Below are positions 1,302 to 63,610 of a DNA stretch of 64,000 bases, one piece after another (the stretch's first letter is position 1; each line of letters opens with the position of its first letter). The notes below the pieces were generated by a model. The model was not told the origin of the DNA, did not search any database, and saw nothing but the letters and a program-made list of their open reading frames with translations. The position numbers and the translations under genes are program-made. Origin of the DNA: a virus (lineage: Duplodnaviria > Caudoviricetes); the IMG/VR virus record IMGVR_UViG_3300029305_002471, positions 7,669 through 71,668 of that record; one strand, given 5' to 3'.

Positions 1302-2378
1302 ATGATAAAGCTCGATTATTCTTTACAAACTCCAGAAGAACGAAACGAATTAGTCTAGCGCATTTTGGATGAACCACGCGAACATCCATTGCCATCAGCA
1401 TACTTAGATGTTCTAGCTGATTATTTAATTCTTTGTATGGAGAAACAAGAGCGCAAAGAGCGAAATATACTTACTGATAATAGATTAGCTACAGTTAATA
1501 AGCGTGAGACTTCATTTGAGGGTCTTGTTTCCCAATTTGAAAATGGCGAAGATGGCATTTATGGAATTATGACAGAAGATAAAAATCAAATTTTTAGGCC
1601 CAAAATTTCAATCACTAAAGAAGATGTTGAAGATATACCTTGTTTAAAACAACTAAAAGACGCTATACATTATTGGGAAGAAAAAGCAAAAACCGCACAA
1701 GGTCGTGATGCTTTAATAATTAAAAAAACATTAATAGAATTACAAAAAGATTAGTATATTATTAAAAATGCTTATAAAAAACCAATTGTTTTTACATAGG
1801 CCATGCATTCGTCTCGTAATTTTATTCCTTTAGATGGAGAAATTGAAATTGGAAAAGATGGTTTACCAATTTCACATGGTATTACTTTATTGGACCCAAA
1901 AGTATGCTCAGCTATTTTATGCAACTATTCTCGTTTAAAACAAGATAGCTGGGGCAATTTTGAATCTGATACTTGGTATTTAGTTTATGATTTTGAAAAA
2001 ATTTGCGATAAAGCATTAGAGCGTTATCCTTTATATATGAAAATCGTTGAATATAAAATTGATGGAATGCAGAATATTGATATTCAAGAAGCCATTTAGA
2101 AAGAATTTGGAATTAAACATAGTTTAGAATATATTTCTTCTTTGTGGCGCAAAAAAATTCCATAGCTTATTGCATCAGCCGCTGAAGATGAATATTTAGA
2201 CTGGTATTTTCTGAAAGAAGCTAAGGGAACATATAAGCGTTGCTCAAGATGCGGCGAGGTTAAATTATTAAATAATAAATATTTTAGTTTAAATAAGAGT
2301 AGTTCGGATAATTTTTATAGTATATGTAAAAAATGCCGAAATCGTAAATGGGGGCTGGACAAAAATAATCAATCCTAA
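1302..2378 (+). CDS. Putative sigma-like/late transcription regulator (358 aa): region-4-like HTH plus C-terminal CxxC..CxxC Zn finger; 5 in-frame TAG
   Basis: ORF pieces 1365-1754 and 1803-2099 share one frame, joined by TAGs; GGAGGTG RBS; HTH-like KIVEYKIDGMQNIDIQEAIQKEFGIKHSLEYISSLW; CSRC...CKKC; TAA stop. Function is inferred. Confidence 0.5.
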
Positions 2379-2402
2379 TTGGTATTTTTTTTAAGTTTAA
2401 TT
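2356..2402 (+). promoter_or_regulatory. Tripartite phage promoter-like motif, copy A (upstream of the terminase region)
   Basis: TGGACAA-N8-AAT-N13-TTTTTA, followed by an AAAGGAG RBS. Confidence 0.6.
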
Positions 2403-2417
2403 GAAAGGAGAGATTAT

Positions 2418-3626
2418 ATGATAGAACAAGTATATTGTACTAAGTGTGGTCGTACTAAATCGGTTGAAGATTTTTATATTTCAAATAACAAAGAAAAATA
2501 TCCAGACGGCCACATAAATCAATGTAAAAAATGTTTAACTATGCATGTCGATAATTGGGACCCAGACACTTATTTATGGATTCTTTAGGAAATTGATGTG
2601 CCTTATATTCCAGATGAGTGGAATAAATTACTCGCAACCTGGGGTAAAGATAAAAGTAAAATAACTGGCTTAACTATTGTAGGTCGTTATCTGTCTAAAA
2701 TGAAACTAAAACAATATAAAGATTTTAGATGGAAAGATACAGAATTCCTTCAGGAAATGGCAAACAAAAAAATTGAAGAAGCAATGAAACGTCAAGGATT
2801 TGGTGCCGCTGAGATTGCTCAGCAAATTGAACGTAGTAGTTTTACTATGCCAGAAGGCGAATTAAGCGAGCCGCCTCCCCCTGTAAAGCACAATGAAACA
2901 AATCCTTTTATACCTCAAGAGGATTATTTTGATGATGGTGCAACAGATAGTTTAGTGTCGCAATTAACCGATGAAGATAAAACTTATCTTCGTTTGAAAT
3001 GGGGTAAAATGTATAAACCAGATGAATGGATTGAGTTAGAAAAACTATATGTTGATATGATGGAGTCTTATGATATCCAAGCCGCTGGTGATAAAAATAC
3101 CCTTATCTTGGCTTGTAAAAGTTCTCTTAAGGCCAATTAGCTAATTGACATTGGTGATATAGATGGCGCCCAAAAGGCAATGAAAATGTATGATTCGCTA
3201 ATGAAGTCTGGTAAATGGACAGCTGCGCAAAACAAAGCTGAGAATGGAGAATGTGTTGATTCTATTTCTGAGCTTGTGGCTCTGTGTGAACGAGATGGAT
3301 TTATTCCTAGATATTATGTAGATACTCCACAAGACAAGGTAGACCGTGTTATTCAAGATTTACAAGACTATACTCGTAATCTGGTTATTGAAGAGATGCA
3401 TTTAGGCCCGTTAATTGAAAGAGCTGTACGCCAGATAGAACAAGACAGAGACAATGAGAGTGATTATGACGATGAGGATGATGAGACTGATGAGCTTGAA
3501 AGATAGCTTTATGACTCAAATGAAGAACTAGAAAATACAGATGAAGATTATGATGAATATTTTCAATAGCAAGAAAAATTAAAAGAAGCAAATGAAGAAT
3601 TATTTAGACTATTGGAGAGTGAATAA
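2418..3626 (+). CDS. Zn-finger protein directly upstream of TerL (402 aa), candidate terminase small subunit
   Basis: Pieces 2379-2588, 2598-3140 and 3180-3506 in one frame across TAGs; CTKC...CKKC; acidic C-terminus; TAA at 3626, two nt before the TerL ATG. Confidence 0.65.
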
Positions 3627-3628
3627 TT

Positions 3629-6461
3629 ATGGCTTTACAATAGTTATTAGATATATCATAGAAGAGACAAAAAATTGGCATATCAGAAGAGCGTATTGAG
3701 GCAATAAAACCCGCACTGCGGTAGTATATTGCCTTTTGGCGCGAATACCCTGATATGTTTATTGATTTTTTACAAACTGGAGCCGACACAACTGAAGTAC
3801 CAAAAGATGGATTAAAATTTTATTTTTATTAGCGTGTATTCTTACGTATTTCGGTTCGTTATCGCCAAGTTTATGCGGTTTTTCCACGTGGTTATTCCAA
3901 GAGCTTCTTAGCTGTCTTAAGTCTTATGATTAGATGTATTCTTTATCCAGGAGCCAAGTTATTTACTTCTGCTGGTGGTAAGAGCCAAAGCGCAAGTATA
4001 TTAAAGGAAAAAGTTGATGAGCTGTGTAGATTGGTTCCAGCTCTCGCGCGTGAAATTGATAGAAGACCTAAAAAAACGCAAGAATCAAAAGATAAGTGCG
4101 TGTATGTATTTAAGAATGGGTCTTATTTTGATAACGTTGCTGCCAATGAGCGTGCTCGTGGTGGTCGTAGACACGCCGGCGTATTGGAAGAATGCGTTGG
4201 TATCGATGGCAAAATCTTAAAAGAAGTTTTGATACCTATGATGGCCATTTCAAGAAAATGTCTTGATGGAACAAAACAAAAAGATGAAGCTCTAAATAAA
4301 GGTGAACTTTACATTATAAAATTTTTGGACAAAGTGTTATAAATTTTTCTCCCTTATTTTCTTATTATAATGAAAGGAGAGATTTTTATGTATTATATTT
4401 ATAAAATTGAAAATTTAGTCAATCATAAAAAATATATTGGTTTAACCAATAATATATAGCGTAGACATTTACGTCATTTTTCTGATTTAAAAAGAGGTTG
4501 TCATGATAATTCTTTTTTACAAAAAGAATATAATATTTATGGCAAAGACAATTTTTCTTTTGAGCAAATTTTTGAAGGAGATATTAGTTCAAAAGAAATT
4601 GGTGAAAAAGAAAAATATTATATTAAGTTATATGATAGTTTTCACAATGGCTATAACCAGAATGAAGGTGGTAATTTTGGGCCTGCAAATGGCGGTAGTC
4701 ATTTAGTTGAAACAGATATATTAAATATTTTAGCGGCTTTAGAGTTTATGTCTAGACCAGGCCAAATTTTATCTGATATGTTTGGAGTGACGAAAACTAC
4801 AATTAGTCGTATTAAACATGGTGTTAATCATGCTTAGTATAAAGAAAAATATGATAAAATGTCATATGAGCAAAGAAAAGCTATATATGATATTTTTTGT
4901 GAAACAACTAATTTTTACGAAAAAAAAGTATAGACAACAATAATTAAATCCAATAGAAGAATGACAAAAGAACAAGTATTTATGGTTCTTTTAAATGAAG
5001 AGCTTGGAAGAAAAATCCCTTTAAAACGCTTGGCGCGTTAGTGGGGTTTTCATGGAAAAGCTTTAATGTCTATATTGCAAGGAAAAAGTTATAAAGATTA
5101 TGTTTTAGAATATACTAAAATAACACAAGACCAAAAAGAAAAAATAGTGTCATTGCTAAGTAATTAGCAATAGCAAACCTCTTGAATTGCGGGGAAGCCC
5201 AGACCGGGTAATCCGCAGCCAAGCTCCAATTATGGAGAAGGTTCAACGACTATCCCGAAAGGGAGTAGGACGCAAGCGATTGGCGTTCGAAGTGGGAGGC
5301 CCCTACCGGTTAGGCCGAGGGTGAAGATATAGTCTACTCTATATAGGAATATATAGCTGCGAAAGCGTGTCGAATGTAGCGAATTCGACAGAATATAAAG
5401 GAACTACAGCAGGCCAAAAGAGTTCGTATGCCTATCAAAAATTGATTTAGACTTTAGTTAAAATGATTACTGAGCCAGGCTCCGCTTTTATTTTAGGTGG
5501 TACTTATAAAATTTTGGTCCTTTTAGGTCAATACGAAAAGACCTTCGTTCAAGATTAGAAGAGGGATGAAACTTTTAATGAAGCGGCTTTTGGTCGTGAA
5601 TATGAATCGCGCTGGTCTGGTACTGTTGAAGATGCTTTCTTTAATGGCGAAGCTTTTGACCGCAGTCGTGTGATTCTTTAGGCTGAAACAGAATATTCCG
5701 GTCGCTCAACTCAATAGAGCTATTATGTAGTTTCTGTCGATGTTGGCCGAAAAGGATGTGATAGCGTAGCTACAATAATTAAAGTAACTCCATAGTCCGT
5801 TGGAGAGGCATATAAATCTTTAGTAAACATTTATACTATATCAGACGAACACTTCGAAGACTAGGCTTTAAAAATTAAAAAGTTATATTATAAATATAAG
5901 GCTCGTAGAGTGGTTATTGATGCCAACGGCTTAGGTATAGGTTTAATGGATTATATGGTAAAAAGTTAGATTGATTCAGTCAATGGCGATGTTTATCCTC
6001 CTTTTGGAGTATACAATGATGAAGATGGATTTTATAAAAAATTCCAAACTAAAGACACCGAATATGATGCTATTTATACTATTAAAGCTAATGCTCCATT
6101 AAACACGGAAGCGCATAGTAATCTTCAAGCATAGCTTAATAGCGGTAAACTTCGTTTCTTGATTGAAGAGCGAGTTGCTAAAACTAAACTTCTAGAAACT
6201 AAAGTTGGCTAGAATATGAGCAGCGAATAGCGCGCAGAGCGTTTAATGCCATTTTAGTTAACAGATATTTTAAAAGAAGAACTTATGAATTTGCGTGAAG
6301 AAAATGAAGGCGTGAATATAATTTTAAAACAAGCCAATAAAAGAGTTAAAAAAGATAAAGTTTCATCGTTAGAATATGGATTATATTATATAAAATAGGA
6401 AGAAAGCAAGAAGCGTAAAAGAAAGCGTTTTGATGCATCTCAATGGTGCTTTATGAACTAA
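3629..6461 (+). CDS. terL: Terminase large subunit, intron-split: join(3629..4314,5402..6461), 581 aa
   Basis: Walker A-like FPRGYSKS, Walker B-like GVLEEC; splicing restores LYITTAG; nuclease-domain motifs VSVDVGRKG and VVIDANGLGIG; many TAG=Q. Confidence 0.9.
4326..4372 (+). promoter_or_regulatory. Tripartite motif, copy B (inside the intron, upstream of the homing endonuclease)
   Basis: TGGACAA..AAT (shifted by 1 nt)..TTTTCT-TATTATAAT then AAAGGAG. Confidence 0.55.
4388..5185 (+). CDS. Intron-encoded GIY-YIG homing endonuclease (265 aa, TAG=Q)
   Basis: YYIYKIENLVNHKKYIGLTNNIQRRHLRHF...GYNQNEGG; own AAAGGAG RBS; TGA stop overlaps the intron P element. Confidence 0.88.
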
Positions 6462-6852: not shown

Positions 6853-8445
6853 GTGGAAGAAATGAATCGACAAGAGCAAATCCGTAATAAAGGATTTGAT
6901 ATGTATAGCTCAAGAGATACTAAATTTGGTACAATTAAAGTTGGTGTTAAAAAGTTAGAAGATGCGACAGTTAATTTGGGCGCTATTTGTTCTAGTAATA
7001 CCAATTATGGAAATAAAGCTGTTATTATGAAAGCTTTATCAACCAATGATATTGAAACCCAAAGGGAAATCTCTAAATACTTTTATCGTACAAGCGGCAT
7101 TTATGAAAGAACTTGCAATTATTTTGCAACAATGTATAGATATGACTGGTATATTGTTCCAGAAGTATATGATGAATCGGTGGCAGAGACAAAAATTGTG
7201 GGAGATTTTCACAGATTATTAAACTATTTAGATAATTCTTATATCAAAAAAATTTGTGCTGATATTGCTAAAGATGTTATTGTTAAAGGCGCTTATTATG
7301 CTTGTATTATTGAAGGATAGAATGGATTGATTTTATAGGATTTACCAATTAATTATTGCCGTTCTAGATATAACGTTGGAAATACTCCAGTAGTTGAATT
7401 TAATATGAGTTTCTTTGACTAGAAATTCCCTGACGCAACTTATCGTGACAAGGTTTTAAAACTTTTTCCAGCTGAATTTGCTAAAGGATATAAATTATAC
7501 CGTCAAGGAAAATTAAATTCAGATGGAATTGCAAAATCTAATTGTTTTTTGAATTATGGCTGGTATCCTTTAGAGCCAGGCTCTGTAGTAAAATTTAGTC
7601 TAACCGCAGATGATTCTCCCTTATTCGTTAACGCTTGTCCCGCTATTCTTGACTTAGATGCTGCGCAAGATTTAGACCGCCGCAAACAGATGCAGAAGTT
7701 ATTAAAAATTATTGTTCAAAAATTACCCATGGACAAAAATGGTGATTTGATTTTTGATGTAGATGAAGCAAGAGATATTCATAATAATGCTGTTCAAATG
7801 TTGCGTCGTGCTATTGGCGTTGATGTTTTGACTACATTTACAGACGTAGATTCAATTGATACTTCAGACCGCAATTCTTCTACAACTGTTGATGATTTAG
7901 AGAAGGTTGAGCGCACTGTATATAATACCTTTGGTGTCTCACAAAACTTGTTTAACACTTCTGGCAACATGTCTTTGGAAAAATCAATTCTAAACGATGA
8001 AGGCTCTATGAGGAGCCTCGTGTTGCAATTCCAGATTTTTTTTGATATAATAACACAAAAGCGAGGCAAAAATAAGAGTAAATATAATTATCGTTTTTAT
8101 ATGTTAGAAACGACACAATATAATTATAAAGATTTATCTAAAATGTATAAAGAGCAGGTTCAAATTGGTTACTCCAAGATGCTTCCACAGATTGCTTTGG
8201 GTCATTCTCAAAGTGCAATTATTAATACAGCTTATTTTGAAAATGAAGTATTACACTTGAGCGAAGTAATGTTACCTCCTTTAATGTCTTCTACTTTAAA
8301 CGCAGAAGACATTTTGGGCAACAAGGGTAAATCAAATACTTCTACTTCTCAAGATAATACGGAAGAGGGTAAGGCTGGAAGACCAGAATTACCCGATGAT
8401 AAAAAGAGTGATAAAACAATTGCCAATAAAGAATCTATGAGCTAA
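6853..8445 (+). CDS. Portal protein (530 aa)
   Basis: Position after TerL; pieces 6853-7320 and 7549-8445 in one frame across TAGs; size and C-terminal GRP...SDKT tail typical of portals. Confidence 0.8.
8315..8361 (+). promoter_or_regulatory. Tripartite motif, copy C (embedded in the portal 3' end, upstream of head genes)
   Basis: TGGGCAA-N8-AAT-N13-TTCTCA-AGATAATA. Confidence 0.6.
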
Positions 8446-10738: not shown

Positions 10739-11797
10739 ATGGCTTTAAATAAAAATGATTTAGTGCAATTAGGTAAAATTGCTATGACTGCTAATCCTTC
10801 TGCTCCTACCGCTTATAGTTTCAATGGTGCTAATTTAACTTATGCAGCTATCAACGAAACTCTTCGCGATGAGTTGAACGCTTTAGCCGGTACTCACGCA
10901 CAATATCGTGAAAATAAGAATTTAATCTTCTCCATTATGGAAGAAGTTCTGGATGATGTTCTGCCTAAGAAGGTTGCAGAGCGCTATGCCGATATGGCTG
11001 TAACCAAGGTGTTCGCACAGGGTGATAAGCCTGAGTTTACTCGTAACCGTACCAATAATCGCCGTGCAAAGCAGTTTATTACTCGCGTTGGTCTGGCTGG
11101 TCGCTATGAAGTTTTCAAGCTTGGTAAGAAAACTGAGAGCTTCCAGGTACCCACTAGCGCACTGGGCGGAGCTGCTCAAATCGGCTTTGAAGAATATTTA
11201 GATGGCCGTATCGACATGGCTGAAGTTCTAAATATCGTTCTTGAGGGTATTGATGAAGCTATTCAGAAGGAAGTTGTCCTGGCTATGGAAGGCGCTGTTA
11301 ACCAGCTGCCTGCTGCTAACCGCGTTTCTATTAACGGTTGGAATGAGGCTGAAATGGACCGTCTAATTTCTATTGTAGCCGCTTATGGTACTCCTGTTAT
11401 TTATTGTACTCGTGAATTTGCTACTCGTATGATTCCTAGCGGAGAGAGTGCAGTTTATCTAACCGAGTCAATGAAAGAGGCTATTTGGAACAATGGCTGG
11501 TTAGGCAATTATAAAACCACTAAGGTTATTATTGTTGAGCAAAGCTTCTTAGATGAGACCAATAGCACTAAGGCAATTAATCCCGCACACTGCTGGATTG
11601 TTCCTACTGGCGCTAATGGCAAGCCCGTTTACATTGCTCTAGAAGGCAACACCCTAATGAAAGAGCATGAAAATGACGATTGGAGCCGTGACATTCAGGT
11701 TTACAAGAAGGTTGGCGTAGTTGCTATGCTGAACAACAGCGTTTGCTACTACTATGACTCCAGCTTGGATATTGATAAGCCTGTTGTAACTGGTTAA
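10739..11797 (+). CDS. Major capsid protein (352 aa, no TAG)
   Basis: Size, position after scaffold/decoration, strong RBS, biased codons, downstream hairpin. Confidence 0.8.
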   Translation: MALNKNDLVQLGKIAMTANPSAPTAYSFNGANLTYAAINETLRDELNALAGTHAQYRENKNLIFSIMEEVLDDVLPKKVAERYADMAVTKVFAQGDKPEFTRNRTNNRRAKQFITRVGLAGRYEVFKLGKKTESFQVPTSALGGAAQIGFEEYLDGRIDMAEVLNIVLEGIDEAIQKEVVLAMEGAVNQLPAANRVSINGWNEAEMDRLISIVAAYGTPVIYCTREFATRMIPSGESAVYLTESMKEAIWNNGWLGNYKTTKVIIVEQSFLDETNSTKAINPAHCWIVPTGANGKPVYIALEGNTLMKEHENDDWSRDIQVYKKVGVVAMLNNSVCYYYDSSLDIDKPVVTG

Positions 11798-15667: not shown

Positions 15668-16621
15668 ATGAAATATGGTATTCGCGAAATTTGCGATGTC
15701 GTTTTAAGAGCTAAGGCTCGTATGAAGGTTGGTAATAAAGTCTTCTATAAGGATGAGCCTGTTATCTATTTTGATAGCTTAAAGACCTCTAGTATGGAAG
15801 GTGCAGCTACCACTGTTTATGCTACTGGTGGCCGTGGTAACTCTCGTCTAATCGCTTGGGAAGGTGAAAGAACAGTTACTTGGACCATGGAAGATGCTCT
15901 AATTTCCAAGGTTGGCTTAGCTATTTTAACTGGTGCTGATGTTATTGATGCTACTAAAGAGGCTCCCATTACAGTTCATACTACTGAGATTGTTAAGAAA
16001 GAAAATGATAAATTTACTTTATCTGAAACTCCTTCTACCAAGGCTTCTGTGTATGCTATGGTTTTAGACAATAATGGTAATCCTATTTCTGAACCTTACA
16101 TTTGTAAGAGTCAAAAGGAATTGGCTTTAGATACCACTGCAACATATACAACTACTACACTACCTACTGATGCAGAAGTAATGTTAGTAGATTATTATGT
16201 AGATAGAACAGGTGGTTCTCAGATTGAAATTACTCCTGATAAGTTCGGTGGTAACTTCTATCTTGAGGCTTCTACTTTGTTCCGTGATACTAATGGTCAG
16301 GACCTGCCTGCTGAGTTCATTATTCCTAATTGTAAGGTACAGTCTAACTTTACCTTCTCAATGGCTTCTAGCGGTGACCCCTCTACCTTTACTTTCACAA
16401 TGGATGCTTTCCCTGGTTATACTCGTTTTAACCCTGAAAAGAAGGTTCTATCTGTAATTCAGATTATTGATGAAGAGGCTGGCGCTGAGTATACTCGTCG
16501 TGAGACTCCTGTTAATTACGCAGGACCTAAGTCTGAGGACGATACTTACTATGAAAAGGGCGAAGAAGCCGGTAACGACGATGACTATCTCGCAGATGAT
16601 AGCACTGTTGTAACTGATTAA
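15668..16621 (+). CDS. Major tail tube protein (317 aa, no TAG)
   Basis: Beta-rich, strong RBS, followed by a terminator, upstream of the tape measure. Confidence 0.7.
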   Translation: MKYGIREICDVVLRAKARMKVGNKVFYKDEPVIYFDSLKTSSMEGAATTVYATGGRGNSRLIAWEGERTVTWTMEDALISKVGLAILTGADVIDATKEAPITVHTTEIVKKENDKFTLSETPSTKASVYAMVLDNNGNPISEPYICKSQKELALDTTATYTTTTLPTDAEVMLVDYYVDRTGGSQIEITPDKFGGNFYLEASTLFRDTNGQDLPAEFIIPNCKVQSNFTFSMASSGDPSTFTFTMDAFPGYTRFNPEKKVLSVIQIIDEEAGAEYTRRETPVNYAGPKSEDDTYYEKGEEAGNDDDYLADDSTVVTD

Positions 16622-18488: not shown

Positions 18489-21400
18489 ATGGGTAATCAA
18501 TCAATTAGAGTAAATCTAATGTTTGACGCTAATGTTGCGGCAGCTAAAAATAATATCTAGCAATTGGCTACTTTATTACAATAGATTGCGACACCAAAAA
18601 CAGTTACAGTTAATGGTGGCGCTATTTAGTAGGCCGCATAGGCTGCGCAGACCCTGTAGATGCATCTGTAGAACGCAATGAATGTCAATACAGGAAAATT
18701 AGATTTAACTAAATTAAACTTTAGTTTGAAACAAGCTGGATTATCTCTTAATGATTTAAGTTCAAAACTTGTAGCTTCTGGTACTCAAGGATAGCAGGCT
18801 TTTACTAAGCTGGCCAATGCAATTGCATAGGCAGGTGTACCTGCTGCATAGCTAAATGCTACTATAGCACAGTTCTTAAAAACCATGGGTTCCGCTATGA
18901 TGTGGAGTGCAGCTTATGGCGCACTAGAAGGCGTTACTAGTACTATTAGAGAAGCCGTAGATTATGCCAAAGATTTAAATAAGGCTTTAAATGATATTGC
19001 TATTGTTTCAGATTTATCTGCTTCTTAGCTAGAAGATTTTGCTGTTAAAGCAGCAAAAGCTGCCAAGACTTTAAATACTACTACTACAGAGTATGCAAAA
19101 GCGGCTTTAATTTTCTATCAATAGGGTTTAAGCGGTAAAGAAGTAGAGGAGCGTGCAAATGTTGTTACTAAGTTAGCGCAAGTAACAGGAGAAAGTGCAC
19201 AGGAAGTTTCTGACCAGCTAACTGCAATTTGGAATAACTTTGATGATGGTTCCAAGAGTCTAGAATATTACGCAGATGCGTTGACTGCTCTAGGTGCAGC
19301 AACTGCGGCAAGTACCGATGAAATTACTTAGGGCTTAGAAAAGTTTGCCGCCGTTTCTGAAACCGTAGGTTTGTCCTATGAATATGCTACAGCCGCATTA
19401 GCAACTGTTGTAGATAAGACTCGTTAGAGTGCAGATATCGTAGGTACCGCATTTAAAACTTTATTTGCTCGTATTGGCGACTTGGAGCTAGGAGAGACGC
19501 TCGATGATGGTGTTACTCTTGGTAAGTATTCCGAAGCCCTTAACGCTGTTGGAGTTAATATTTTAACTCAAAGCGGAGAGTTAAAGGATATGGATAATAT
19601 CCTTGACGAACTCGGTAGTAAGTGGAATAATATTAGTAAAGCGCAGTAGACTGCATTGGCATAGACTGTTGCTGGTACTAGACAATATACGCAATTTATT
19701 GCCATTATGGATAACTACAAAGATTTTAAACTTAATGTAGATATTGCGTCTGGTGCAGAAGGAACACTTACCGAGCAGTGGGAGACTTGGGCGGATAGTT
19801 ATGAAGCAGCTGCCAAAAGAGTAGAACAAAGAAAAAATGAACTATATGAGGCCTTATTAGATGACGATTTTGTAATTGGTTTAACTGATACTTTTGCAGG
19901 ATTGATTGGCACTATCGGAGAAGCTGCTGATGCTATGGGTGGCCTTGGACCTATTATATTAACAATTATTGGATTATTTGCCAATAGACTAATTCCTGTA
20001 ATTTCTAATGCGGCTACTCATTTTGTATAGAATTGGCGAGTTATGAGCGGCGCTGCACAGCGGGAAAGCTTAGCTACTAAAGAATCGATTCGTCAGCTTT
20101 CTGAAGAAATGATTCAACAAAAAATTATTACTGGAGCTTAGGCTGAAGCTTTATAGTTAACAAATTAGTTATCTTTAGCAAAAGAAAAATTAGCTAAAAC
20201 TTCTCGCTATTTAACAGAGGCTCAGAAAGCTGAGTATGAATAGAAAATGAATTTATATGAAGCTGGTAATTTGGAATTATAGAAATCTATAGAACTAGCT
20301 GAATAGAAATAGAAAGAACTAATGGTAGCAAAAAAATCTTTTTCTGTTGTGAATAAGGATAGAATTAATAATGCCAATTAGAATAAAATAACAGAATTAA
20401 AAAAAGTTGTTGGAAATAAAGAAAATATTAAGGCTAGAAATGCGGAAATTCAAAGCATACAAAATAAAATTGATAAAGACCCTAATAATAATAAGGGCGG
20501 TCGATTAACCAAATATAACAATCGCTTAGCAGAATTAAAAAAAGAACAAGAGGCAGAAATTTAGCTATAGAGAATTAGAGCATCAACCAAAAAAGGAATA
20601 TCCGAACGTATTATAGGTACTTCTTAGTTAATTACTCCAGAGGCGGATGTAGAGGATAAATAGGCTGCTAATTATAGCGATAGATACTTAAATAATTTTT
20701 TACAACAAGATTTAGGAATGTCTGAACTCTCCGATGCTGCAGTTAGCTAGGGGTCCGTACAGGTAGACACAAGCATCGAAAATCTAGAAAAAGTTATTTA
20801 GAAAACCAAAGAAGTAAAAACCACGGGAGAAAATATTGATTAGTTTGTTATTGAGCTAGGAAACTCCTTAGAAAAAATAACTCCTGATAATGTAGACACC
20901 CTTAAGACGAGTTTTGAAAAGTTAGGACAAAATGCTGGATTAACTCAAGATGAAATAACAGAATTTAACACTTCTTTGGACAAATTGGCAAACGGCACAA
21001 AATTGCCAGAGGCCGATATGAATAAATTACACACTACTTTAAGGGGTATGCGTGATGGTGCTGAGCGCTCAGGGCTATAGCTAGAGGAATTGGCAGGGTA
21101 GATGGCAGAAACTTTTATACAAAGTGGTATAGGAGAAGAATAGTTATAGGACTTAATCAATAAAATGGATTTGACCGCGGAAGAGGCAGAATAGTTAAAA
21201 CAAAAAATAGCTGCCCTACAAAAACAATCAGAAGATTTAAATATTACCCCTAAAATGACCAAAGGATAGGCTTTTGGCTCTTTGATTGGTCAAGTGGGTC
21301 AACTTGCTGGAAGCATTTCTATGGTGGTAGGTGCTGTTTAGATGTTTAATACTGTTTTTGATGAAACTGCTGACCCAATGACTAGATTTACAACTGCTTT

Positions 21401-37845: not shown

Positions 37846-37888
37846 GGGGATAAGACATAAAAAAATACTTTCCGGAGGTAAACAAAAA

Positions 37889-43633: not shown

Positions 43634-43662
43634 ATTATATCAAAAAATTTTTACTTTTTCAA
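43634..43662 (-). promoter_or_regulatory. Sigma-A promoter
   Basis: TTGAAA-17-TATAAT. Confidence 0.7.
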
Positions 43663-46370: not shown

Positions 46371-46384
46371 AATTTTTACCTCCA

Positions 46385-46434
46385 ATACCATATATAGTGT
46401 GGGAAAAAGTATGTGCCCACACTATATATGGGTT
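46385..46434. promoter_or_regulatory. Two NrdR-box-like sites forming a 16-bp inverted repeat upstream of nrdD
   Basis: ATACCATATATAGTGT (46385-46400) and ACACTATATATGGGTT (46419-46434) match acaCwAtATaTwGtgt. Confidence 0.7.
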
Positions 46435-47034: not shown

Positions 47035-47385
47035 TTATTCCTTTCTAGAATTAAACCAATCGCTATCATTAAAGCCGAAATTATAATAAGCTAATAATTT
47101 CATTTTACTTAAATAACGTCCAATAACACTTCCAGGCTTATTATGATAAAGGTCATAGGTTCTATTCCATTCATCTTGAATATATGGAACATTAAAATGC
47201 TATAAAATTGGTAAAATAGTGCGTATATCCTAATAATTAATTTCTTGTAAATAACACTATTTACATTTGGTATCATATTTTTCAAGCTGCATATAGTCTT
47301 TACGAACTGGCGGATTTGCCTTTATCCTCCAAAAGGAAGACAAAGGCAGACGTTTTTTACAACATATACATTCTATTTTATTCAT
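47035..47385 (-). CDS. Zn-finger protein (116 aa), paralog of the N-terminal domain of 2418..3626; missed by the ORF track
   Basis: CICC...CKQC; ILQHFNVPYIQDEWN and VIGRYLSKMKL align with ILQEIDVPYIPDEWN and IVGRYLSKMKL. Confidence 0.8.
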
Positions 47386-50300
47386 CTTCTACAATTCCTC
47401 CTTGATAGCGTTCGGTTTGAAGAACCAAATCACCATCAATAATATCATTTATTTTGTAGAGTTGGTGTCCACCAGAGCTAGCATATTTCTTCGGTAAGAA
47501 CGCGTCCCCTGAACGAATGCCTTGAACCAAAATCATATTACCACGATTAAACCAAGACTTTTCAATAACTTTCTTGGTTCCATCAGAATACTTTTCTGAA
47601 ATTTGTTTATCAAATAAACTAAAATATTCTTTACGGAATTTAACTGTTACTACGCCGTCTACAGTAAGTAAAGTAACTGTTGCTTTTGCTTTATCTTTTG
47701 CAATACAAGTTCCACAAATTTTAGTAAGTTTAAATAATTTAATTTCTTTATCGCCTTTCCAAAAGGTTCTATCAACTACCGGGTCTTCGGGTAGCTCAAA
47801 GAAATTACTTAAACCATATTTACTCACATTCACATTGGCTAACTCATGTTCATGATAATAGAAACAGAGAACTTCCATTTCCCAGGCTGAAATATTGCCT
47901 TTACCTGCATATTTACCCCAATCCTCTAAAAAGATGATTTTATTTAGTTCCTTTAAAATATTTTCTTTATCATCCGCAATCCAGTTTCTAAAGATATCCA
48001 TGTACTTTTGATATACTTTATCCCATTTCTTTGTATCAATAAACCAGGCCAAATTGTCTGTTGTAATTAAATCATCACATTCAATTTCATTTAAAAAAGC
48101 TAAAGCTCTTTCATCTAAAGTATAAAAACCATCATAAGAGCAAGAATCAGCTTTAGTAATAGCCTTTAAATATCGATTAAATTCATATACACGTTTTGGT
48201 AATACAAATTCTTCTGTATCGGGAATAATATTATACTTTAATAAGCCTGGCATGTTTTGTAGGGTTAATCGAGATTTCTTATCACAAGTCTCCCATAGAT
48301 ACCAGGCCATAGCAAATTTGCGGTCCTCGAGCTCATCAAAAGCTCCACCTTTAATAAGAGAAATCATAGAAGATTTTTTAGGATTCACTTTTGTTACAAA
48401 GTCTTTAATAGACGTATAGGGCCGATTATTCATAACTTGTTGAATAACTTCTTCGCCTACGTTTAGCATGCCACGTAACCCAAAAATAATTTGATTATTT
48501 TCAGCGTCAGGGTAAAAAGTGTATTGAGACTTATTGATATCGGGAGGTTTAATATTAATACCTTCTGACATCATTTTACCAATGGCTGAGGCAATTTTAT
48601 CATAGTTATTGGCGCGTTTTTTCTTTACCTTTGTTTTTCGGTCTGGTGCGTCGATATATTCATATTCAGAGAAATCCTCTGGCTCATAAATATCTACTAC
48701 TTCTTCTATTGGCTCATCTGTGTCAGGGTCTTCTGCTCCGCCGCTATCAGTAATAAGGCAAGCGCAATTCCAGAAGATAACAGGGTATTTATGGGCGAGA
48801 TTCATTTCTTGAAGCGCTACAAAAGAATAGGCTAGAGTATGCGCTCTGCAAAAACTATATCCTCTCTGTACGCGTAAAAGCACATCCCAAACATAATGTG
48901 CTAAAGTCATATTACAATTTTTTTGTGCAGCATTTTCAAAAAATTCTTTTTCACACTTTTCAAACAGAGGGCCAATCTTTTTTGCCAAAGCTTTACGAGC
49001 TGAGTCAGCAAAACCTAAGGAGTTGCCGCCAAGGCGTTCTTCTTGAACCAAGGACATTAGACCTTCTTGAGATTCGCAAATTCCATCTGTTATAGCAGAG
49101 TGATTGCGCAACCATTCGATATCTTCTTCAGCAAGTCCATAATCTTTCATTTCTTGATACCATAAATTAATGTTTTTACGATATTTAGCCCAAGTTTCAA
49201 GTGGTTGTTCTGCTCCTTTTTCAGAAGCCATTAGTCTAATAACAGAGTTTAAAACTGCCAATTCACTAATGTTTTTGGGTTTTGCGAGAGCAATACCTTG
49301 AATACCACTTTGTTTTTCCATTTGAAACAGAGAAAGAATTTCATGATTCCATACCATATTCCACATTGCAGGGTCTTCTCTTTCAAGATTATAAATGCCT
49401 ATTGCTTTTTCATAGGTGTCTTTTAATGTGTCTTCTGGAATAATATATCCCTGATTAACTAAAAGGTCTAAACAAGTGTGAATTTTATCTAATGCTTCAA
49501 CACTAAGAAGGTCGATTTTAATTAGGCTAGCTGCCTCTGAAGTGTGCAAGTCAAATTGAGTTACAATGTCACCATTTGGTACTCGCATTAGGGCGGTTGA
49601 TTCTGTAAAAGGCTCGTCAACAAAGATAACACCGCCCGCATGTTCTCCGATTCCGCAAACCAATCCCTCGATTTTTTGAGCTACCGCCCAAAGCTCGGGA
49701 TTATTATTCATTTCATTAACAAATAATGATACTGGTAAAAATTCTTTTTCAGTATCTCCATAATAACATTGTTTCAAAGTTCTGGCTTGGCCACGGTCAC
49801 TAGGTACAAGAGAGGAGATGTAAAGCGCTTCGTCTACATCTATGCCCAATCCGCGCGCTGCTGTTTGAATTGCGCTTTTGGATTTTTCTGTTTTAAAGGT
49901 AACAACATTAGCTACCCTATCCTCTCCATAAACCTTACGCAAATGCGCAAGAACCTCGGCTCTACGTCCTCCCTCGATATCAGTATCAATATCAAGAACA
50001 CTTTTACGTTCTGGATTTAAGAAACGCCAAGGAAATAGTGCTGTCTGTTCCCAACATTTATTGATTTGTATAATATCCAAGAGATAAAGTAATAAGAAGC
50101 CAACGCCTGAGCCTCGACCAGGGCCGATTAGCGTTCCTGCCGCCCAGCACTCTTCAATAATATTTTGAAGATTAAGGAAATAAGCACTCCAATGTGTATT
50201 ATTAACTTCTGAAGAAATCCATGTCATTTCTAGATTTCCATTTAGCTCTTGGTAAATTTCATCATTTTGTAATCTTGGGTCACCCTCTATTTTTTCAATA

Positions 50301-51349
50301 GCGAGTTCTACAAGTCTTCTGTCTCCCTCAAAAGAGGAGTGATAAAAAGTTGTTAAATATGGAATTTTTTCAAAATAAAAATTAGGAATATATTTTATTG
50401 TTGGAGTTTTCCATTTTAATGAAGGAATTTTTAATGGTTTTTTTAATGTAAAATCTTCTACACGATTTTTAATTTCAATAATATTTTGATAGGCTCTATT
50501 TAAATCTTCTTTGGATAAATTTCCCATATATGATTCAAGTTCTTCAGTTCCCATCATGTAAGTGGTTGCATAGAACGAATCAACTTCACGCTCACCCTCT
50601 TGCGCATTTAGAAAAGCTTTATGTATAGGGGCGTCTTCTTTGCGGAGATAATGGGTATCTGTTGTAATAATATATGGAATATTTAATTCCTTTGAAAGCT
50701 GTAAAATAATTTCATTCGCAAGTTTTTGTTCAGCGTTAGCAGAAGGTTGCATTTCTAAATAAAAATTTCCGCGACCAAAAACCCTTTCCATTTGTAGACA
50801 CCAATTTTGAATTTTTTCATAAAAACCTTTTTGTCTACCTTGCGCATCCCATTGTAAAATTTTAGTACCTAAAAATCCACCTAAACAGGCCGTAGAACCA
50901 ATAACATTTCCAGGATTAGAACCAATTATATCAATTAAATCTTGATAATAGGTAGGCACTCTACGCATTTTACCATTCATCCATGAGCGTTGCCAAGCTC
51001 TTGTAGATAGCTCTCTAATTTGTTTATGGCCCTCCGCATTTAGCGCAAGAAGCACAAAATGAAAATATTTATCTTCTCCTCTAATAAAGTTTTCTGCGGT
51101 AAGCCCATCTCGGCAAAGATAAATTTCATTACCTAAAATGACTTTAAAATTAGGATTTTTTTCTTTTATTTTATTATAATAATCTTCTATTTCCATTGCA
51201 TTAGAAATGGTTTCGTGCTCTGTAAAGGCAATAGTTTCATGACCAAGTTCAATGGCATAGTCTATTAATTCGTTTACACGAACAATTGCGTCACGCAAAC
51301 GAAGATTACTATAGTGTGTATGATTATGAAGACTACCAGGGTAGTTCAA
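47378..51349 (-). CDS. dnaE: DNA polymerase III alpha subunit (DnaE-type, PHP domain; 1323 aa, no TAG)
   Basis: HNHTHYS PHP, GPGRGSG, LDIDTD, HAGG, KIDLL, GYSFCRAH, OB-fold C-terminus. Confidence 0.95.
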   Translation of the reverse strand: MNYPGSLHNHTHYSNLRLRDAIVRVNELIDYAIELGHETIAFTEHETISNAMEIEDYYNKIKEKNPNFKVILGNEIYLCRDGLTAENFIRGEDKYFHFVLLALNAEGHKQIRELSTRAWQRSWMNGKMRRVPTYYQDLIDIIGSNPGNVIGSTACLGGFLGTKILQWDAQGRQKGFYEKIQNWCLQMERVFGRGNFYLEMQPSANAEQKLANEIILQLSKELNIPYIITTDTHYLRKEDAPIHKAFLNAQEGEREVDSFYATTYMMGTEELESYMGNLSKEDLNRAYQNIIEIKNRVEDFTLKKPLKIPSLKWKTPTIKYIPNFYFEKIPYLTTFYHSSFEGDRRLVELAIEKIEGDPRLQNDEIYQELNGNLEMTWISSEVNNTHWSAYFLNLQNIIEECWAAGTLIGPGRGSGVGFLLLYLLDIIQINKCWEQTALFPWRFLNPERKSVLDIDTDIEGGRRAEVLAHLRKVYGEDRVANVVTFKTEKSKSAIQTAARGLGIDVDEALYISSLVPSDRGQARTLKQCYYGDTEKEFLPVSLFVNEMNNNPELWAVAQKIEGLVCGIGEHAGGVIFVDEPFTESTALMRVPNGDIVTQFDLHTSEAASLIKIDLLSVEALDKIHTCLDLLVNQGYIIPEDTLKDTYEKAIGIYNLEREDPAMWNMVWNHEILSLFQMEKQSGIQGIALAKPKNISELAVLNSVIRLMASEKGAEQPLETWAKYRKNINLWYQEMKDYGLAEEDIEWLRNHSAITDGICESQEGLMSLVQEERLGGNSLGFADSARKALAKKIGPLFEKCEKEFFENAAQKNCNMTLAHYVWDVLLRVQRGYSFCRAHTLAYSFVALQEMNLAHKYPVIFWNCACLITDSGGAEDPDTDEPIEEVVDIYEPEDFSEYEYIDAPDRKTKVKKKRANNYDKIASAIGKMMSEGINIKPPDINKSQYTFYPDAENNQIIFGLRGMLNVGEEVIQQVMNNRPYTSIKDFVTKVNPKKSSMISLIKGGAFDELEDRKFAMAWYLWETCDKKSRLTLQNMPGLLKYNIIPDTEEFVLPKRVYEFNRYLKAITKADSCSYDGFYTLDERALAFLNEIECDDLITTDNLAWFIDTKKWDKVYQKYMDIFRNWIADDKENILKELNKIIFLEDWGKYAGKGNISAWEMEVLCFYYHEHELANVNVSKYGLSNFFELPEDPVVDRTFWKGDKEIKLFKLTKICGTCIAKDKAKATVTLLTVDGVVTVKFRKEYFSLFDKQISEKYSDGTKKVIEKSWFNRGNMILVQGIRSGDAFLPKKYASSGGHQLYKINDIIDGDLVLQTERYQGGIVEDE

Positions 51350-51578: not shown

Positions 51579-52775
51579 TTATTTTTTAATTACTAATAAT
51601 TTATCACTAGCCCTTGTACAAGCTGTATATAGCCACCGAGCGTGTTCGGTGCTTTCATTTGGGAACCATTCTTCAAATACCGCAACCTTTGGCCACTGAC
51701 TGCCCTAAGCTTTATGGGTCGTAATTGCGTAAGCATAAGAGAATTCATAGGGTGCATTAATATAATTTTTATTTTTATTTAAATTATAAACTTGCTGCGG
51801 AGTTAAAAAACTTTCGCCAGTAGTTAAACAATGATAATCAATTGGAACAAAATTAAAGCTATCACCATCATCTAAACTAATATTTGTAAACATATATGGA
51901 ACCGGTCCTCTTGGACTTAAATATCGAGGCAACCACATGTCTTCCTTATCAAAATATTCAATAGTACCAATAGAACCATTGGTTAATGCCCAAGTACCAT
52001 TGGTAGAAGAGTCATCCCAATGATTGCGTAGCGATATAATTTTATCACCAATGCAAGGTTCTGGCCCAAATCCCTTGAGTTCGCGCATCTCATTATTTAT
52101 CTTTATTCTTTGCCTATTGGTCGCACATAAAATTTGGTCCGCCCATTCATACATTCCAGTTACGACTTCTAATTTATCAAGAACTTGAACCTGTTCTTTT
52201 GAGCAAGGATAAAGGGCTAGGGGTTTGCCTGCACGAATCCACATAGACAAACGAATAATTTCACTGTCTTGTGCTTGTCGCATAATTTCATCAAGGAAAA
52301 TATGCGGATGGTCTAGGACATGATTATCGTCATTTGGGTCAATTGCTGGTAACTAAAAGGGGTCTCCAAGAGCTATGATATATACTGGATGACGTAGTAA
52401 TTGTTGCCATAGGCTGGTCGGCAGCATAGATACTTCATCGACAACAATGACTTTATACTCTTGCTCAAGAGTGTCTCTTGGAATAAATTTGTAGCTTCCA
52501 TTGGGCATGGGCTTTGCTCGATATAACAACTTGTGTGCGGTTGTGGCATTGGGGCAACCCTTTTGAGATAAGACGGCGGCCGCCTTACCAGTAAAAGCGA
52601 CATAAGCGACTTGGCTATTTGGGTCTATATCTAATGCGCTAATAATAAATTTTACGAGGGTCGACTTACCTGAACCCGCATATCCAGATATTACTGTATA
52701 TTTTTCACCGCGCTTATAGCGCTCAACAGCCTCGCGCAGTCCCTATTCTTGTTTATTTGTTAAAACTATACTCAA
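51579..52775 (-). CDS. Dda/RecD-like SF1B helicase (398 aa)
   Basis: GYAGSGKST Walker A, VVDEVSM, LGDPFQL, IMRQ, AITTHKAQGSQW (Q=TAG), YTACTRA. Confidence 0.9.
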
Positions 52776-54056: not shown

Positions 54057-55805
54057 TTAAAAATAATAATGTTGTGTTTTGACAATTTCATAATCCTCTA
54101 TTAGAATTTGAGGACTTACATAACCATTCCATACGTTTTTCTGGAAATGACCAATAACATTAATAGTAACATAACCCAAGTCAGAACATAATTTATTATA
54201 TTCTTCCTCAGACGAACCGAATCTAATCAAACTGATATCTTGACCATCGGTAGGTACTGTAATTTTCAGAGTCGTTTCTTTTAATAAAGTAATATTTTCA
54301 TTGGTAATTCGAATATTTTTTACTAAAACGAAAGGCTCTTCTACGCCCTACCCCCAAAGACCTTCATAATTTGCGATTTCTAATACGTCATTACCTGTCA
54401 AAACTTCGGCATCATAAATCAAATCTACAAAGTATTTTTGGGAAAAGTCGAAGTCTGCTAAAGCGTGGTTCGCATAATCAGTAAACAGACACACTTTTTC
54501 ATCTTTTATAGAAGCTCCAAAAGCTCCTTCATGTCCTTGTGCCATTTCGAAATAACCACTATTATCAAGAAAGCTGCGGAATGTAGTGAAAGCACTTTGT
54601 GAAAAAATTCTTCCTGAACCAGACCATAGTATAGTTTTATCTTCTTGGACAGTTTTGTTAAGTATTAAAGTTGGTTTCTAATACTCATTAGCAATTTTAG
54701 TTGCTACTAAACCAGTTAGGTTTTTATCAATACTATGTTCTTCATCTAGCTTTACAATAATAATTTGATTCTTTAACAAATCTTCTTGTTCGATAATTTG
54801 TTCAATTATCTTCAGGCTATTGTCTCTTGCTTTGTTTTGCCTATTTTTGATATTTGTGCAATTACGACAAGCCTGTTCTACTACTGTTTCATATGTTCCC
54901 TTAAAGCCTCTTTTTGTAGAGGGAATTTGCTAATAGGCTTTATAATCTAACATAGATTCAAATAGTAGGAGCTTTTCTTCTTGCGTGCCACATCTAGTAG
55001 TTGCGTTTATGTATGGCGCAATATAAAAAGCTACTCCAAAAGGTGTGATGTTTCCTTTCAATGAAAAGTCATTTTTAATTGTCATTGTACGGAAAAAAGG
55101 ATTGATAATGTTTTGTATTCCAAGATTGATGATATGCTTTGTTTCAAAATCATTGAGCGGCATAACATCTGCTATAATTCCTAATGCGGCCAGGTCAAGA
55201 AATTGGTCAGCATTATGAATACCAAGCTTTTCATCTATATAACTACAAAATTTATAAACCATACCAACTCCCGAAAGTGATTTAGTGGGATAATCACATA
55301 GCTGGTTATTTATAATACACGCATACTCGCTTATCTTTTCGGCCTCATGATGGTCAATAACTAACACATCAACGCCGCGTTCAGCAAGTGCGTGATGAAC
55401 TTCGTAATCATTGCTTGAACTGTCCGGAGCGATTACTAGTTTCACATCTTCTGGAATTGTATCGAGAATAAGTCCATGCTATTTACCATCGTGTAGACGA
55501 TAAATAATATTATTTTGTGTAAATCCTGGAAATAATGAATTAAGATAATTTAACAAAAACGCTGAACTCGTATAACCATCACAATCACTGTCCACTTGAA
55601 GAAACACTTTACTTTCTCGATTAATGTGATGAATTAACATTTTTACACCTTCTTGTAAATTTTTTATTAAAGAAGGTGGAAGAATGTCTTCATCAGTTGT
55701 GTTTAAATAATGTCTAATATCCTATAACAAGATGCCTCGATTAAATAGAACTTGTTCTATAGGGGAAGTGCCGGGAATCCGACGACACAGAAGCTAATAA
55801 TTCAA
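54057..55805 (-). CDS. recJ: RecJ-like DHH ssDNA exonuclease (582 aa)
   Basis: VDSDCDGYTS, IDHH, LSGVG, IADVM, NATTR, GHEGAFG, WGQG (Q=TAG). Confidence 0.9.
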
Positions 55806-55862
55806 AGCATCATCACCCACTTTATATTTGAAAATTTCGTCATATAAATTGTCTCCTTTTGC

Positions 55863-61383: not shown

Positions 61384-61399
61384 AACTTTTTATTTCTCC

Positions 61400-61768: not shown

Positions 61769-61791
61769 TTTCTTATTTATCTTATAGATAT

Positions 61792-61820
61792 ATTATAACA
61801 CAAATTTTATAGAAAATCAA
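61792..61820 (-). promoter_or_regulatory. Sigma-A promoter
   Basis: TTGATT-17-TATAAT. Confidence 0.65.
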
Positions 61821-62483
61821 TTACATTCTTCCACAACTATGAGCTTCAGTACATTTTCCAAGCCATTCGCATTTTGGCATAAAATAGTTATCAACAATAT
61901 ATTCCCACTCTGGCGAATAATCTCTTAAGGCTTGTTTATAGTCTTCAAACAATTCTCTAAATTCCCAATAAGCTCTTACACACTCTCTTTGATGGGACAT
62001 ATCAATTAGGTTGCGTAAATTGCGCTTATCAACAATTGAAGTTGTCATACCAAGAGGTAGCAAGTTGGCGCTATCTTCACGAGGAATTCCTTCTATTTCC
62101 AGAAGACGCAACGCTTCACGGATATGTTTCATACCTTTTACATAAGCATAATGTGCTTCTTTATTCTTCTCAATGGAAGGAGGCATGATATAATCAAAAC
62201 CTTTTTGATAATCAATATATCGAGTAGAGGATTGAACTCGAGTGGGTGCGCCACCGATATGAGTATACCATTCACGGATAACGCGCGCACTATATCCATC
62301 GATTACTGAATAAACATCGGGAAATTCTAGTGTACGTCCATGGTTAGAGGCAAGCATTTCTAATCCTCGTTTATAATTCTTTTCATCATTTGAAACATCT
62401 GAACCATAACAAATTCCTGCCTCTCTTCCAATCATAGTAATTGGATTTTTAGTTGTATATTCTTGAATAATTACTTTTCCCAT
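61821..62483 (-). CDS. thyX: Flavin-dependent thymidylate synthase ThyX (divergent motif)
   Basis: HGRTLEF, QSSTRY, PREDSANLLP, NLRNLI..R...AYWEFR. Confidence 0.8.
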   Translation of the reverse strand: MGKVIIQEYTTKNPITMIGREAGICYGSDVSNDEKNYKRGLEMLASNHGRTLEFPDVYSVIDGYSARVIREWYTHIGGAPTRVQSSTRYIDYQKGFDYIMPPSIEKNKEAHYAYVKGMKHIREALRLLEIEGIPREDSANLLPLGMTTSIVDKRNLRNLIDMSHQRECVRAYWEFRELFEDYKQALRDYSPEWEYIVDNYFMPKCEWLGKCTEAHSCGRM

Positions 62484-62494
62484 AACTTACCTCA

Positions 62495-63610
62495 TTATTT
62501 TATACTATATCCAAAATCCTTGGCATGAAAAAAGTCTTGCCAATAATCCTCTCTTGCATCTAAATTGTCTCGTTCACACTCTTCCAAAAGCTCAAATGTG
62601 AAGTTCTCTACGCCAAATTCTAGCATTGCTGGATAGAGCTTATTGCGTGTTGGCGCTTCTGCTCCAAGTCCACGCTTGATATGTTGCCGCCAACGACTAG
62701 CTATATCAGCCGCTTGACCAACATAACACATTTGATTTTCTAGATTAGTAATTTTATATATACCAGTTTTAATACCACTACCGATAACTCTACCAATCAT
62801 ATCTGTATAAGGTTTTTCATAATAAACTTTCCAAATGACCTTATTCAAAGCTTCACGGTCACGCAAGAAAGGTTCTACAGCACGCAATTGTGCGATTTCA
62901 TGAAGGTCGCTTTCGGGGATAACAAGACGATAAAAATTCTGTTCTTGGCGTTTCTCTTCATCGCGTTTTGCGGCGGCCACCGCAGCATCAACAGCCGACT
63001 ATAGAATATTTAACTCTTTTTCAAGATTTTCTTTGCGTTTTGTGGCTTCTTCTAATCGCTCTTGGAAACACTAAACGCATTCGCGCATAGTATCAAAGTA
63101 TATATTATTATAACTAGAAATTTGGTCCTAACACTGTAGAGCTGCTTGTTCTACTGCTCTATCAAGCTATTCACAAGCTAGTGCCATTTGCTAGTCAAGA
63201 AAAGTTTTAGCAGTTTTTTCTGCGTCAATTTTAGACTATTCTAAATTTTTGGATATATCTTCTCTTTGGGCAGTCATATGAGTAATGTCTACACCCAAAG
63301 TTTCTTTTTTTATTTGAAGAGCATTAACTTCATGTAAAATTTCATCAATTTTTTGATTATTAGTTAAAATATTTTCTTCACATTCTTGTTGACTTTTTTT
63401 ACGACGAAGCTCTATCTCTAAAAGTTCTGCTTCATTCTATTTTCTTCGAGCTTCAAAAACTTTTTGCTATTTTTCAAAAAGTTCTTTTTCAGCTTGTAAA
63501 TTTTCATAATTAATTTCTCGGATTTTTTCTTGCGGCATTTTGCGAATAACTAACCATGCGATACCAAAACCGCAGGCCGCACCGAGAATAGCCGCGATTA
63601 TTAGTTCCAT
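62495..63610 (-). CDS. N-terminal TM, long coiled coil and C-terminal GIY-YIG nuclease domain (371 aa)
   Basis: MELIIAAILGAACGFGIAWLVIRK TM; in frame with the 62495-62980 fragment across several TAGs; TGIYKITN..YVGQA..RWRQH. Confidence 0.75.

Follow-up and report, generated by a model that had tools for sequence, protein, structure and literature searches.

Reassignment of the amber stop codon TAG to glutamine (Gln; genetic code 15) has already been described in phages, including the wider family related to phage phAss-1. Here we describe a further, heavily recoded case in a stretch of 64,000 nucleotides, hereafter the window, which spans bases 7669-71668 of the IMG/VR virus record IMGVR_UViG_3300029305_002471. 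The record is a linear contig of 71,668 bp without terminal repeat, and its completeness is 43% according to CheckV, by which about 90 kb are missing. Positions are given in window coordinates unless contig bases are mentioned. The gene content of both arms of the contig is that of a large siphovirus, and the contig is very likely a fragment (about 43%) of the roughly 160-kb genome of a long-tailed siphovirus infecting a gut or rumen member of the Bacillota, a genome written in code 15.

phAss-1 is TAG-to-Gln recoded, has three tRNA-SUP-CTA, a tape measure of 3149 amino acids (aa) and no dedicated synthetase, and is predicted to infect Clostridia (Babkin et al. 2023, PMC10607447). NCBI files it (OQ749652) under "Caudoviricetes code 15 clade". 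The window phage resembles phAss-1 in that the genes for the large terminase subunit (TerL), the portal, the tape measure and nucleotide-metabolism enzymes are recoded. Both have a tape measure of roughly 3000 aa and a predicted Bacillota host, and no phage aminoacyl-tRNA synthetase was found in either. Homologues of signature proteins of the phAss-1-related long-tailed Bacillota phages (PMC10607447) are present (TerL, portal, capsid and tape measure). Amino acid identities to OQ749652 by tblastn were 45% for the capsid-like protein, 41-44% for the two TerL parts, 39% for NrdD, 38% for the portal, 34% for the alpha subunit of DNA polymerase III (Pol III alpha), and 29% over 927 aa for the tape measure. 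Identities of just 29-45% rule out membership in the genus Phassvirus, whose three proposed members share 80-86% nucleotide identity (PMC10607447). The two phages also differ in the extent of recoding (28% of the open reading frames, ORFs, of phAss-1 against 71% of our gene models) and in their tRNAs: phAss-1 encodes 36, including three tRNA-CUA, whereas the partial contig has none. They belong to different capsid sub-clades, and the window phage stands beside standard-code and TGA-recoded phages.

The clades Agate, Jade and Sapphire of Borges et al. are large recoded gut phages in which codes 11, 4 and 15 are mixed within clades, late genes are more heavily recoded, and intron homing endonucleases are recoded as well (bioRxiv 10.1101/2021.08.26.457843). 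Going by the published description, the window phage is most like Agate. The likeness concerns animal-gut genomes of more than 100 kb, codes 11, 4 and 15 in one clade, structural genes recoded more than replication genes, a group I intron homing endonuclease with recoded stops, and a change of sign of the GC skew between two oppositely oriented gene arms. Yet the pattern in the window phage is not simply one of recoded late genes: its replication genes are also recoded (15% of Gln codons), and its capsid-like and tail-tube-like genes are free of TAG. With 71% of its gene models and 27% of its Gln codons affected, it is a heavily recoded addition to the phAss-1/Agate-like group of large Bacillota phages.

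Among cultured phages, the nearest relatives are TR-TP1 and TR-TP2 (PQ571309, PQ571310), which infect Thomasclavelia ramosa and use the standard code; their NrdD is 60% identical to ours. As in the window phage, the genes from terminase to tape measure lie on one strand, those for replication on the other, and essential genes are split by homing endonucleases. In TR-TP1 (loci L001 and L002), HNH endonuclease genes interrupt each of the genes for NrdD, the DNA polymerase and the tape measure, and the presence of mobile endonucleases within essential genes may be characteristic of the family. Unlike in the window phage, ORF coverage in these standard-code phages is unchanged when TAG is taken as sense. 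TR-TP1 matched 8 of our 74 proteins; most others were less than 40% identical or undetectable. Metaproteomics has given peptide-level proof of code 15 in crAss-like phages (Peters et al. 2022, PMC9523058). The TAG-recoded crAss-like and Lak phages share with the window phage the TAG-to-Gln reassignment, known here from sequence, but have unrelated virion and replication modules and Bacteroidota hosts.

Reading TAG as a sense codon restores the genes

The window contains 58 ORFs of 100 aa or more under code 11; the longest has 1323 aa and all others have at most 485 aa. Reading TAG as Gln joins the fragments into longer genes, including those of 2856, 1200, 942, 755, 718, 587, 530 and 518 aa. 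ORFs of at least 100 aa then cover 91% of the contig, compared with 48% under code 11, and those of at least 200 aa cover 73%, compared with 23%. We used the three single-stop reassignments as mutual controls. Coverage was far lower with TGA as sense (56% and 26% for the two lengths) and with TAA as sense (76% and 35%, the former value being probably inflated by short extra ORFs in AT-rich DNA), and neither of these readings restored the genes.

A greedy, non-overlapping set of gene models built on the whole contig with TAG as Gln comprises 74 genes and covers 94% of the sequence. It includes 273 in-frame TAGs in 22,375 codons. The models end in TAA (61) or TGA (13), which are kept as terminators, and none ends in TAG. 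A preliminary description of the window had proposed that fragmented ORFs join under TAG read-through and that the rebuilt genes end in TAA or TGA, and had called for coding densities to be compared under codes 11 and 15; the coverages above and all 74 models agree with it. Among the 59 models that touch the window, 42 (71%) contain TAG, with 259 TAGs in total. In-frame TAGs are distributed along the whole length of genes and just six lie within 10 codons of the real stop, one of which (NrdG, 43675) is in an invariant-Gln column. Hence, nothing suggests that any gene still uses TAG as its terminator.

Several genes had been described as invisible under code 11. This is correct for NrdG, RuvC and the genes at 14918, 17839 and 47035, none of which has an ORF reaching 100 aa under that code. 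The case at 37889 is uncertain: ORFs overlap there on opposite strands (37841-38320 on the plus and 37568-38113 on the minus strand), and neither matches any family. With the default bacterial code about half of the coding sequence is lost, including NrdG, RuvC, the terminase, the portal and the tape measure, and virome pipelines would mis-annotate or discard such a phage.

TAG is very probably read as glutamine

To assign the residue, proteins were translated with X at TAG and used as tblastn queries against 92 related loci of IMG/VR and GenBank. The coding density of each locus served to class it as standard-code (50 loci), TAG-recoded or TGA-recoded. These loci replaced TR-TP1 as sole standard-code reference, which matched 8 of 74 proteins and gave 30 TAG sites, too few for the purpose. 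In the 50 standard-code loci, the residues opposite TAG (n = 1016) were Gln in 42% of the cases, glutamate (Glu) in 11% and lysine (Lys) in 7%. Opposite the ordinary Gln codons CAA and CAG (n = 3519), they were Gln in 38%, Glu in 11% and Lys in 10%. The two substitution profiles are practically identical. In a test similar to that of Codetta, we scored the residues of TAG columns with empirical substitution profiles, one for each of the 20 residues. Gln was the best-fitting residue by a wide margin (-2.18 nats per observation; 963 residues of the 50 standard-code loci, aligned to 139 TAG sites), 0.78 nats per observation ahead of the next, Glu (-2.96), which was followed by Lys (-3.14).

Between the window phage and its three closest recoded relatives, TAG and CAA/CAG are exchanged in both directions. 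The codon of the relatives opposite our TAG is CAA in 32%, TAG in 21% and CAG in 5% of the cases, and opposite their own in-frame TAGs the window phage has Gln in 35% and TAG in 24%.

The preliminary description had cited individual TAGs at conserved Gln positions, and every one of them is present where it was placed. In NrdD, the TAGs (x) at 45417 (TLxSR) and 45750 (AFxL), as well as a further one at 45456, each face Gln in 37 of 37 standard-code relatives. The same holds for NrdG at 43675 (GSSNxR; 28 of 28 standard-code relatives) and for the helicase at 51705 (HKAxGS; nine of nine relatives, and PDB 9kwf). Another helicase TAG, at 52353, lies at the conserved Gln (Q) of the motif DPxQLP (x here being any residue), found in all relatives and in PDB 9kwf, and the one at 7336 in the portal faces Gln in nine of nine standard-code relatives. 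Conservation is weaker for two of the cited sites: in RecJ at 54348 (WGxG) Gln is found in just 3 of 8 standard-code relatives, and in RuvC at 41951 (LDxAS) in 3 of 5, with TAG itself in 5 of 7 recoded relatives. The TAG codons of RuvC are themselves kept in four to seven recoded relatives. Because of the Codetta-like test, the two-way exchange with CAA/CAG and the kinship to phAss-1, we conclude with high confidence that TAG is predicted to encode Gln, as the preliminary description had proposed.

Relatives, host and competing explanations

The closest loci (L004, L005 and L006) have capsid-like proteins 75-85% identical to ours, and all are TAG-recoded. In a tree of the capsid protein they form a clade with the window phage (support 100/100). 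Its sister (99/99) contains the standard-code L007 and the TGA-recoded L009, L010 and L019. The in-frame TGAs face our tryptophan (Trp) in 11 of 16 cases in L009, and in 7 of 11 cases in L008, which is also TGA-recoded. L011, L012 and phAss-1 are separate TAG lineages, the branch of phAss-1 being long and poorly placed. Three codes (TAG-recoded, TGA = Trp, and standard) are thus found among phages with capsid-like proteins at least 54% identical to that of the window phage. At least two or three code changes are needed within the family, as reported for other clades. With sister lineages that use the standard code or TGA = Trp, the group offers a compact natural series in which changes of code can be studied.

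The preliminary description had called this a Firmicutes-type phage, which finds indirect support. Besides the hosts of the cultured relatives, more distant portal matches were to phages of Enterococcus, Brevibacillus, Bacillus and Lactococcus, and a Shine-Dalgarno core precedes 46% of the provisional starts, compared with 7.6% of random positions. The relatives' hosts and these cores point indirectly to a Bacillota host. Searches of genome collections for a host gave just a 10.9-kb contig binned with Prevotella sp. and a rumen metagenome-assembled genome (MAG), neither of which was informative. The former (L113, JAJQAI010000099.1) is a standard-code member of the same phage family, with a capsid-like protein 54% identical to ours, and its presence in a Prevotella sp. 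MAG is probably a binning artefact rather than evidence on the host.

The host itself might read TAG as Gln, in which case the phage would merely match it, as code-25 phages match their Absconditabacteria hosts. This would agree with the presence of TAG in 71% of the window genes and with the failure to find a suppressor tRNA, release factor or synthetase on the contig or on those of the two closest relatives. We nevertheless consider it very unlikely. To our knowledge, there is no bacterial lineage with TAG = Gln. TAG is strongly avoided in the polymerase, a block of small ORFs, and the capsid and tail-tube genes, and this avoidance is conserved, which is not expected if TAG were an ordinary host codon. 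Moreover, relatives carry their own tRNA-CUA, and Thomasclavelia ramosa, host of the cultured relatives, supports a standard-code phage. The sister lineages use the standard code or TGA = Trp, and therefore the code appears to belong to the phage lineage.

Translation of TAG as a residue other than Gln (Glu, Lys, pyrrolysine, leucine, Trp, tyrosine or serine) is even less probable. Among the 87 TAG sites with at least five standard-code homologues, Glu is the majority residue at 7, Lys at 6 and aspartate at 2; ARAGORN labels the CUA tRNAs of relatives "Pyl"; and just one of the five NrdD TAGs faces Gln in the distant PDB structure 8p23. However, Gln is the majority residue at 29 of these 87 sites and no other exceeds 7, the same spill-over to Glu and Lys is seen at ordinary CAA/CAG positions, invariant-Gln columns carry TAG, and the likelihood of Gln beats that of every other residue. 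As for pyrrolysine, no pyl genes turned up among the annotated ORFs. The comparison with 8p23 indicates that the TAG columns of NrdD are family-specific, not universal.

That TAG is still a stop, and the contig a decaying prophage or an assembly or sequencing artefact with illusory long ORFs, is effectively excluded by the pattern of the three stop codons: although the contig is a fragment and IMG/VR classes the close relative G002 as a provirus, just one of the three stops interrupts the frames, and frameshifts are absent. The tape-measure frame runs for 8.6 kb with 80 TAGs but without a single TAA or TGA, in DNA with a GC content of about 35-39%. Relatives assembled independently from metagenomes have TAG at matching columns (36 of 170 in the closest three), and the rebuilt proteins match Pfam models end to end.

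How TAG may be decoded

Gln at TAG could be delivered by an amber-suppressor tRNA(CUA) with glutamine identity that the phage itself would encode, as relatives do, on the part of its genome missing from the assembly. Charged with glutamine by the machinery of the host, this tRNA would outcompete the host release factor 1 (RF1). Such a tRNA is common in described code-15 phages, though not present in all of them. We regard this mechanism, with the suppressor on the missing 57%, as reasonably probable by analogy; the evidence from relatives is mixed. A tRNA-CUA is found in the TAG-recoded phAss-1, G004 (140 kb) and G008 (144 kb, 100% complete), within arrays of 22-37 tRNAs. The array of phAss-1 is about 40 kb beyond NrdD, and the matching position here falls past the end of the contig. 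Alignment of the relatives' tRNA-CUA with their own tRNA-Gln was uninformative on the identity of the suppressor.

Several points weigh against the proposed explanation of TAG as a Gln codon read by a suppressor. We found no tRNA on the 71.7-kb contig, either with ARAGORN (linear and circular, default and relaxed) or with Rfam (at the gathering score, and at E up to 1 for the window and the 7.7 kb to its left). The RF-1/RF-2 domain (PF00472) and the catalytic domain of glutaminyl- and glutamyl-tRNA synthetases (GlnRS/GluRS, PF00749) were not found on the contig or in four relatives. The closest relatives, G001 (97 kb) and G002 (81 kb), gave only a tRNA-Lys(UUU) and one degenerate tRNA-like element, and no tRNA-CUA was found in the recoded G006, which is 75% complete. 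The 963 observations of the likelihood test come from phylogenetically related genomes and are not independent; the conclusion rests on the 139 sites. Finally, the timing of gene expression considered below is assigned from gene function, and all support for the code assignment comes from sequence. The preliminary description had suggested a search for a tRNA-CUA, GlnRS or release factor 2 in the rest of the genome; there is none on the contig, which, being 43% complete, settles nothing. In the 7.7 kb to the left of the window, PHROG scans had no functional match and no code-switch gene was recognised. Two low-scoring tRNAs from the relaxed ARAGORN run (Ser-GCT, and Gly-GCC inside the polymerase gene) were taken as false positives.

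Because a CUA tRNA was seen neither on the contigs of the window phage, G001 and G002 nor in the 75%-complete G006, the sub-clade of the first three might decode TAG as Gln without a canonical tRNA(CUA). We think this improbable. Candidates for such decoding may be a non-canonical tRNA-like molecule, for instance the degenerate element of G001 and G006, or a modification of a host tRNA or of RF1. Nothing here alters what is known in principle about recoding, and real novelty is limited to how this closest sub-clade decodes TAG.

In G001 and G006 the degenerate element lies directly upstream of tRNA-Lys(UUU), at L102:1421-1493 (plus strand) and L120:2751-2830 (minus strand), respectively. That of G001 scores 29.7 bits in Rfam and is missed by ARAGORN, which gives that of G006 a 6-nt anticodon loop ("anticodon ct"). 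Neither element has CUA, and the window contig has no counterpart.

Uneven use of TAG across genes

The Gln codons of the contig are CAA (560), TAG (273) and CAG (166), i.e., TAG makes up 27%. Its share is 36% in the structural arm and 15% in the replication arm, and falls to 4% (1 of 25 Gln codons, P = 0.004) in a block of ten small ORFs around the left edge of the window. Pol III alpha has no TAG among its 45 Gln codons (binomial P = 6e-7), nor has the tail-lysozyme-domain gene among its 18. The capsid-like, scaffold-like and tail-tube-like genes are also TAG-free, with too few Gln codons for significance singly. TAG is absent from the tail tube of seven of seven recoded relatives, from the capsid-like protein of five of six, and from Pol III alpha of six of nine, the other three having 1-4 TAGs (at most 4 per 1300 aa). 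Taken together, Pol III alpha and the capsid-like, tail-tube-like and scaffold-like genes have few TAGs or none in 5-9 independently recoded relatives, while the genes next to them are rich in TAG. Portal homologues contain 7-9 TAGs in five of six recoded relatives and one in phAss-1, and homologues of the gene at 14918-15643 have 3-11 TAGs in recoded relatives.

The block of small ORFs (contig bases 4535-8970, i.e., window -3133 to 1302) has genes on both strands without known function. Its position corresponds by synteny to the tRNA-Lys locus of the closest relatives, and it may be an early region in standard code.

Because TAG use is graded by module, we suggest that the code may act as a layer of timing and efficiency. 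Genes needed before the suppressor accumulates (the polymerase and the small, presumably early ORFs) would stay in standard code, late genes could be completed only after the code switch, and the most abundant virion proteins would avoid a codon that is read by suppression. The same early/late model has been described previously (bioRxiv 10.1101/2021.08.26.457843). The conserved, graded avoidance of TAG, set against a tape measure with 42% TAG, may offer a testable signature of code-gated timing and of a cost of suppression for translational efficiency.

Gene content of the contig

The GC content is 32-39% along the window, and the sign of the GC skew flips near 40 kb, together with the orientation of the genes. 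The plus-strand arm encodes a sigma-like regulator, the split terminase, the portal, the capsid-like and tail-tube-like proteins, the tape measure and large tail proteins (Table 1). The major capsid protein is presumed from position and conservation. The minus-strand arm encodes RuvC, a dUTPase, NrdG, NrdD, a guanylate-kinase-like protein, Pol III alpha and the SF1 helicase, together with the tail-lysozyme-domain protein, RecJ, a Toprim protein, DnaB, a Sak4-like ATPase, ThyX and a GIY-YIG protein. The ATPase (PF13479/AAA_24) is putatively Sak4-like by its likeness to the annotation of TR-TP1.

Table 1. Main features of the window, with the number of in-frame TAG codons.
Feature	Position	Strand	Length (aa)	TAG	Remarks
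TAG read as sense	1302..63610	.			Required by 42 of 59 models; recoding runs leftward to contig base 67
Terminase large subunit, two parts	3629-4342 and 5367-6461 (span 3629..6461)	+			
GIY-YIG homing endonuclease	4370-5185	+		6	Between the terminase parts
Group I intron core	5083-5356				Rfam, 92.5 bits; between the terminase parts
Portal	6853..8445	+	530	3	
Scaffold-like gene	10040-10720	+		0	
Presumed major capsid protein	10739..11797	+		0	phrog_4088, among PHROGs without function
Virion structural/major-tail-like (tail-tube-like) protein	15668..16621	+		0	
Tape measure	18489..27059	+	2856	80 (42% of Gln codons)	PHROG tape-measure families, residues 17-510
RuvC-like resolvase	41501..41977	-	158	3	PF02075, 24.8 bits (cut-off 22.2)
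NrdG activase	43651..44127	-	158	4	
NrdD, anaerobic ribonucleotide reductase	44124..46391	-	755	5	Pfam NRDD 2-562/562, E 2e-140
DNA polymerase III alpha	47378..51349	-	1323	0	
RecD/Dda-like SF1 helicase	51579..52775	-	398	3	
RecJ-like DHH exonuclease	54057..55820	-	587	6	

A match to Peptidase_M27 in the conserved virion protein at 14918-15643 (17.1 bits against a cut-off of 27, E 0.003) was taken as due to chance. A search with the protein encoded at 60457-61383 for sequences extending the right end of the contig gave only a 10-kb close relative and more distant genomes. The cassette at 37.6-40.9 kb is bordered by sub-threshold Rfam matches on both strands (His_leader-like and sRNA-like), at 37623-37825 and 40870-41013, which may be bidirectional hairpin terminators at module boundaries.

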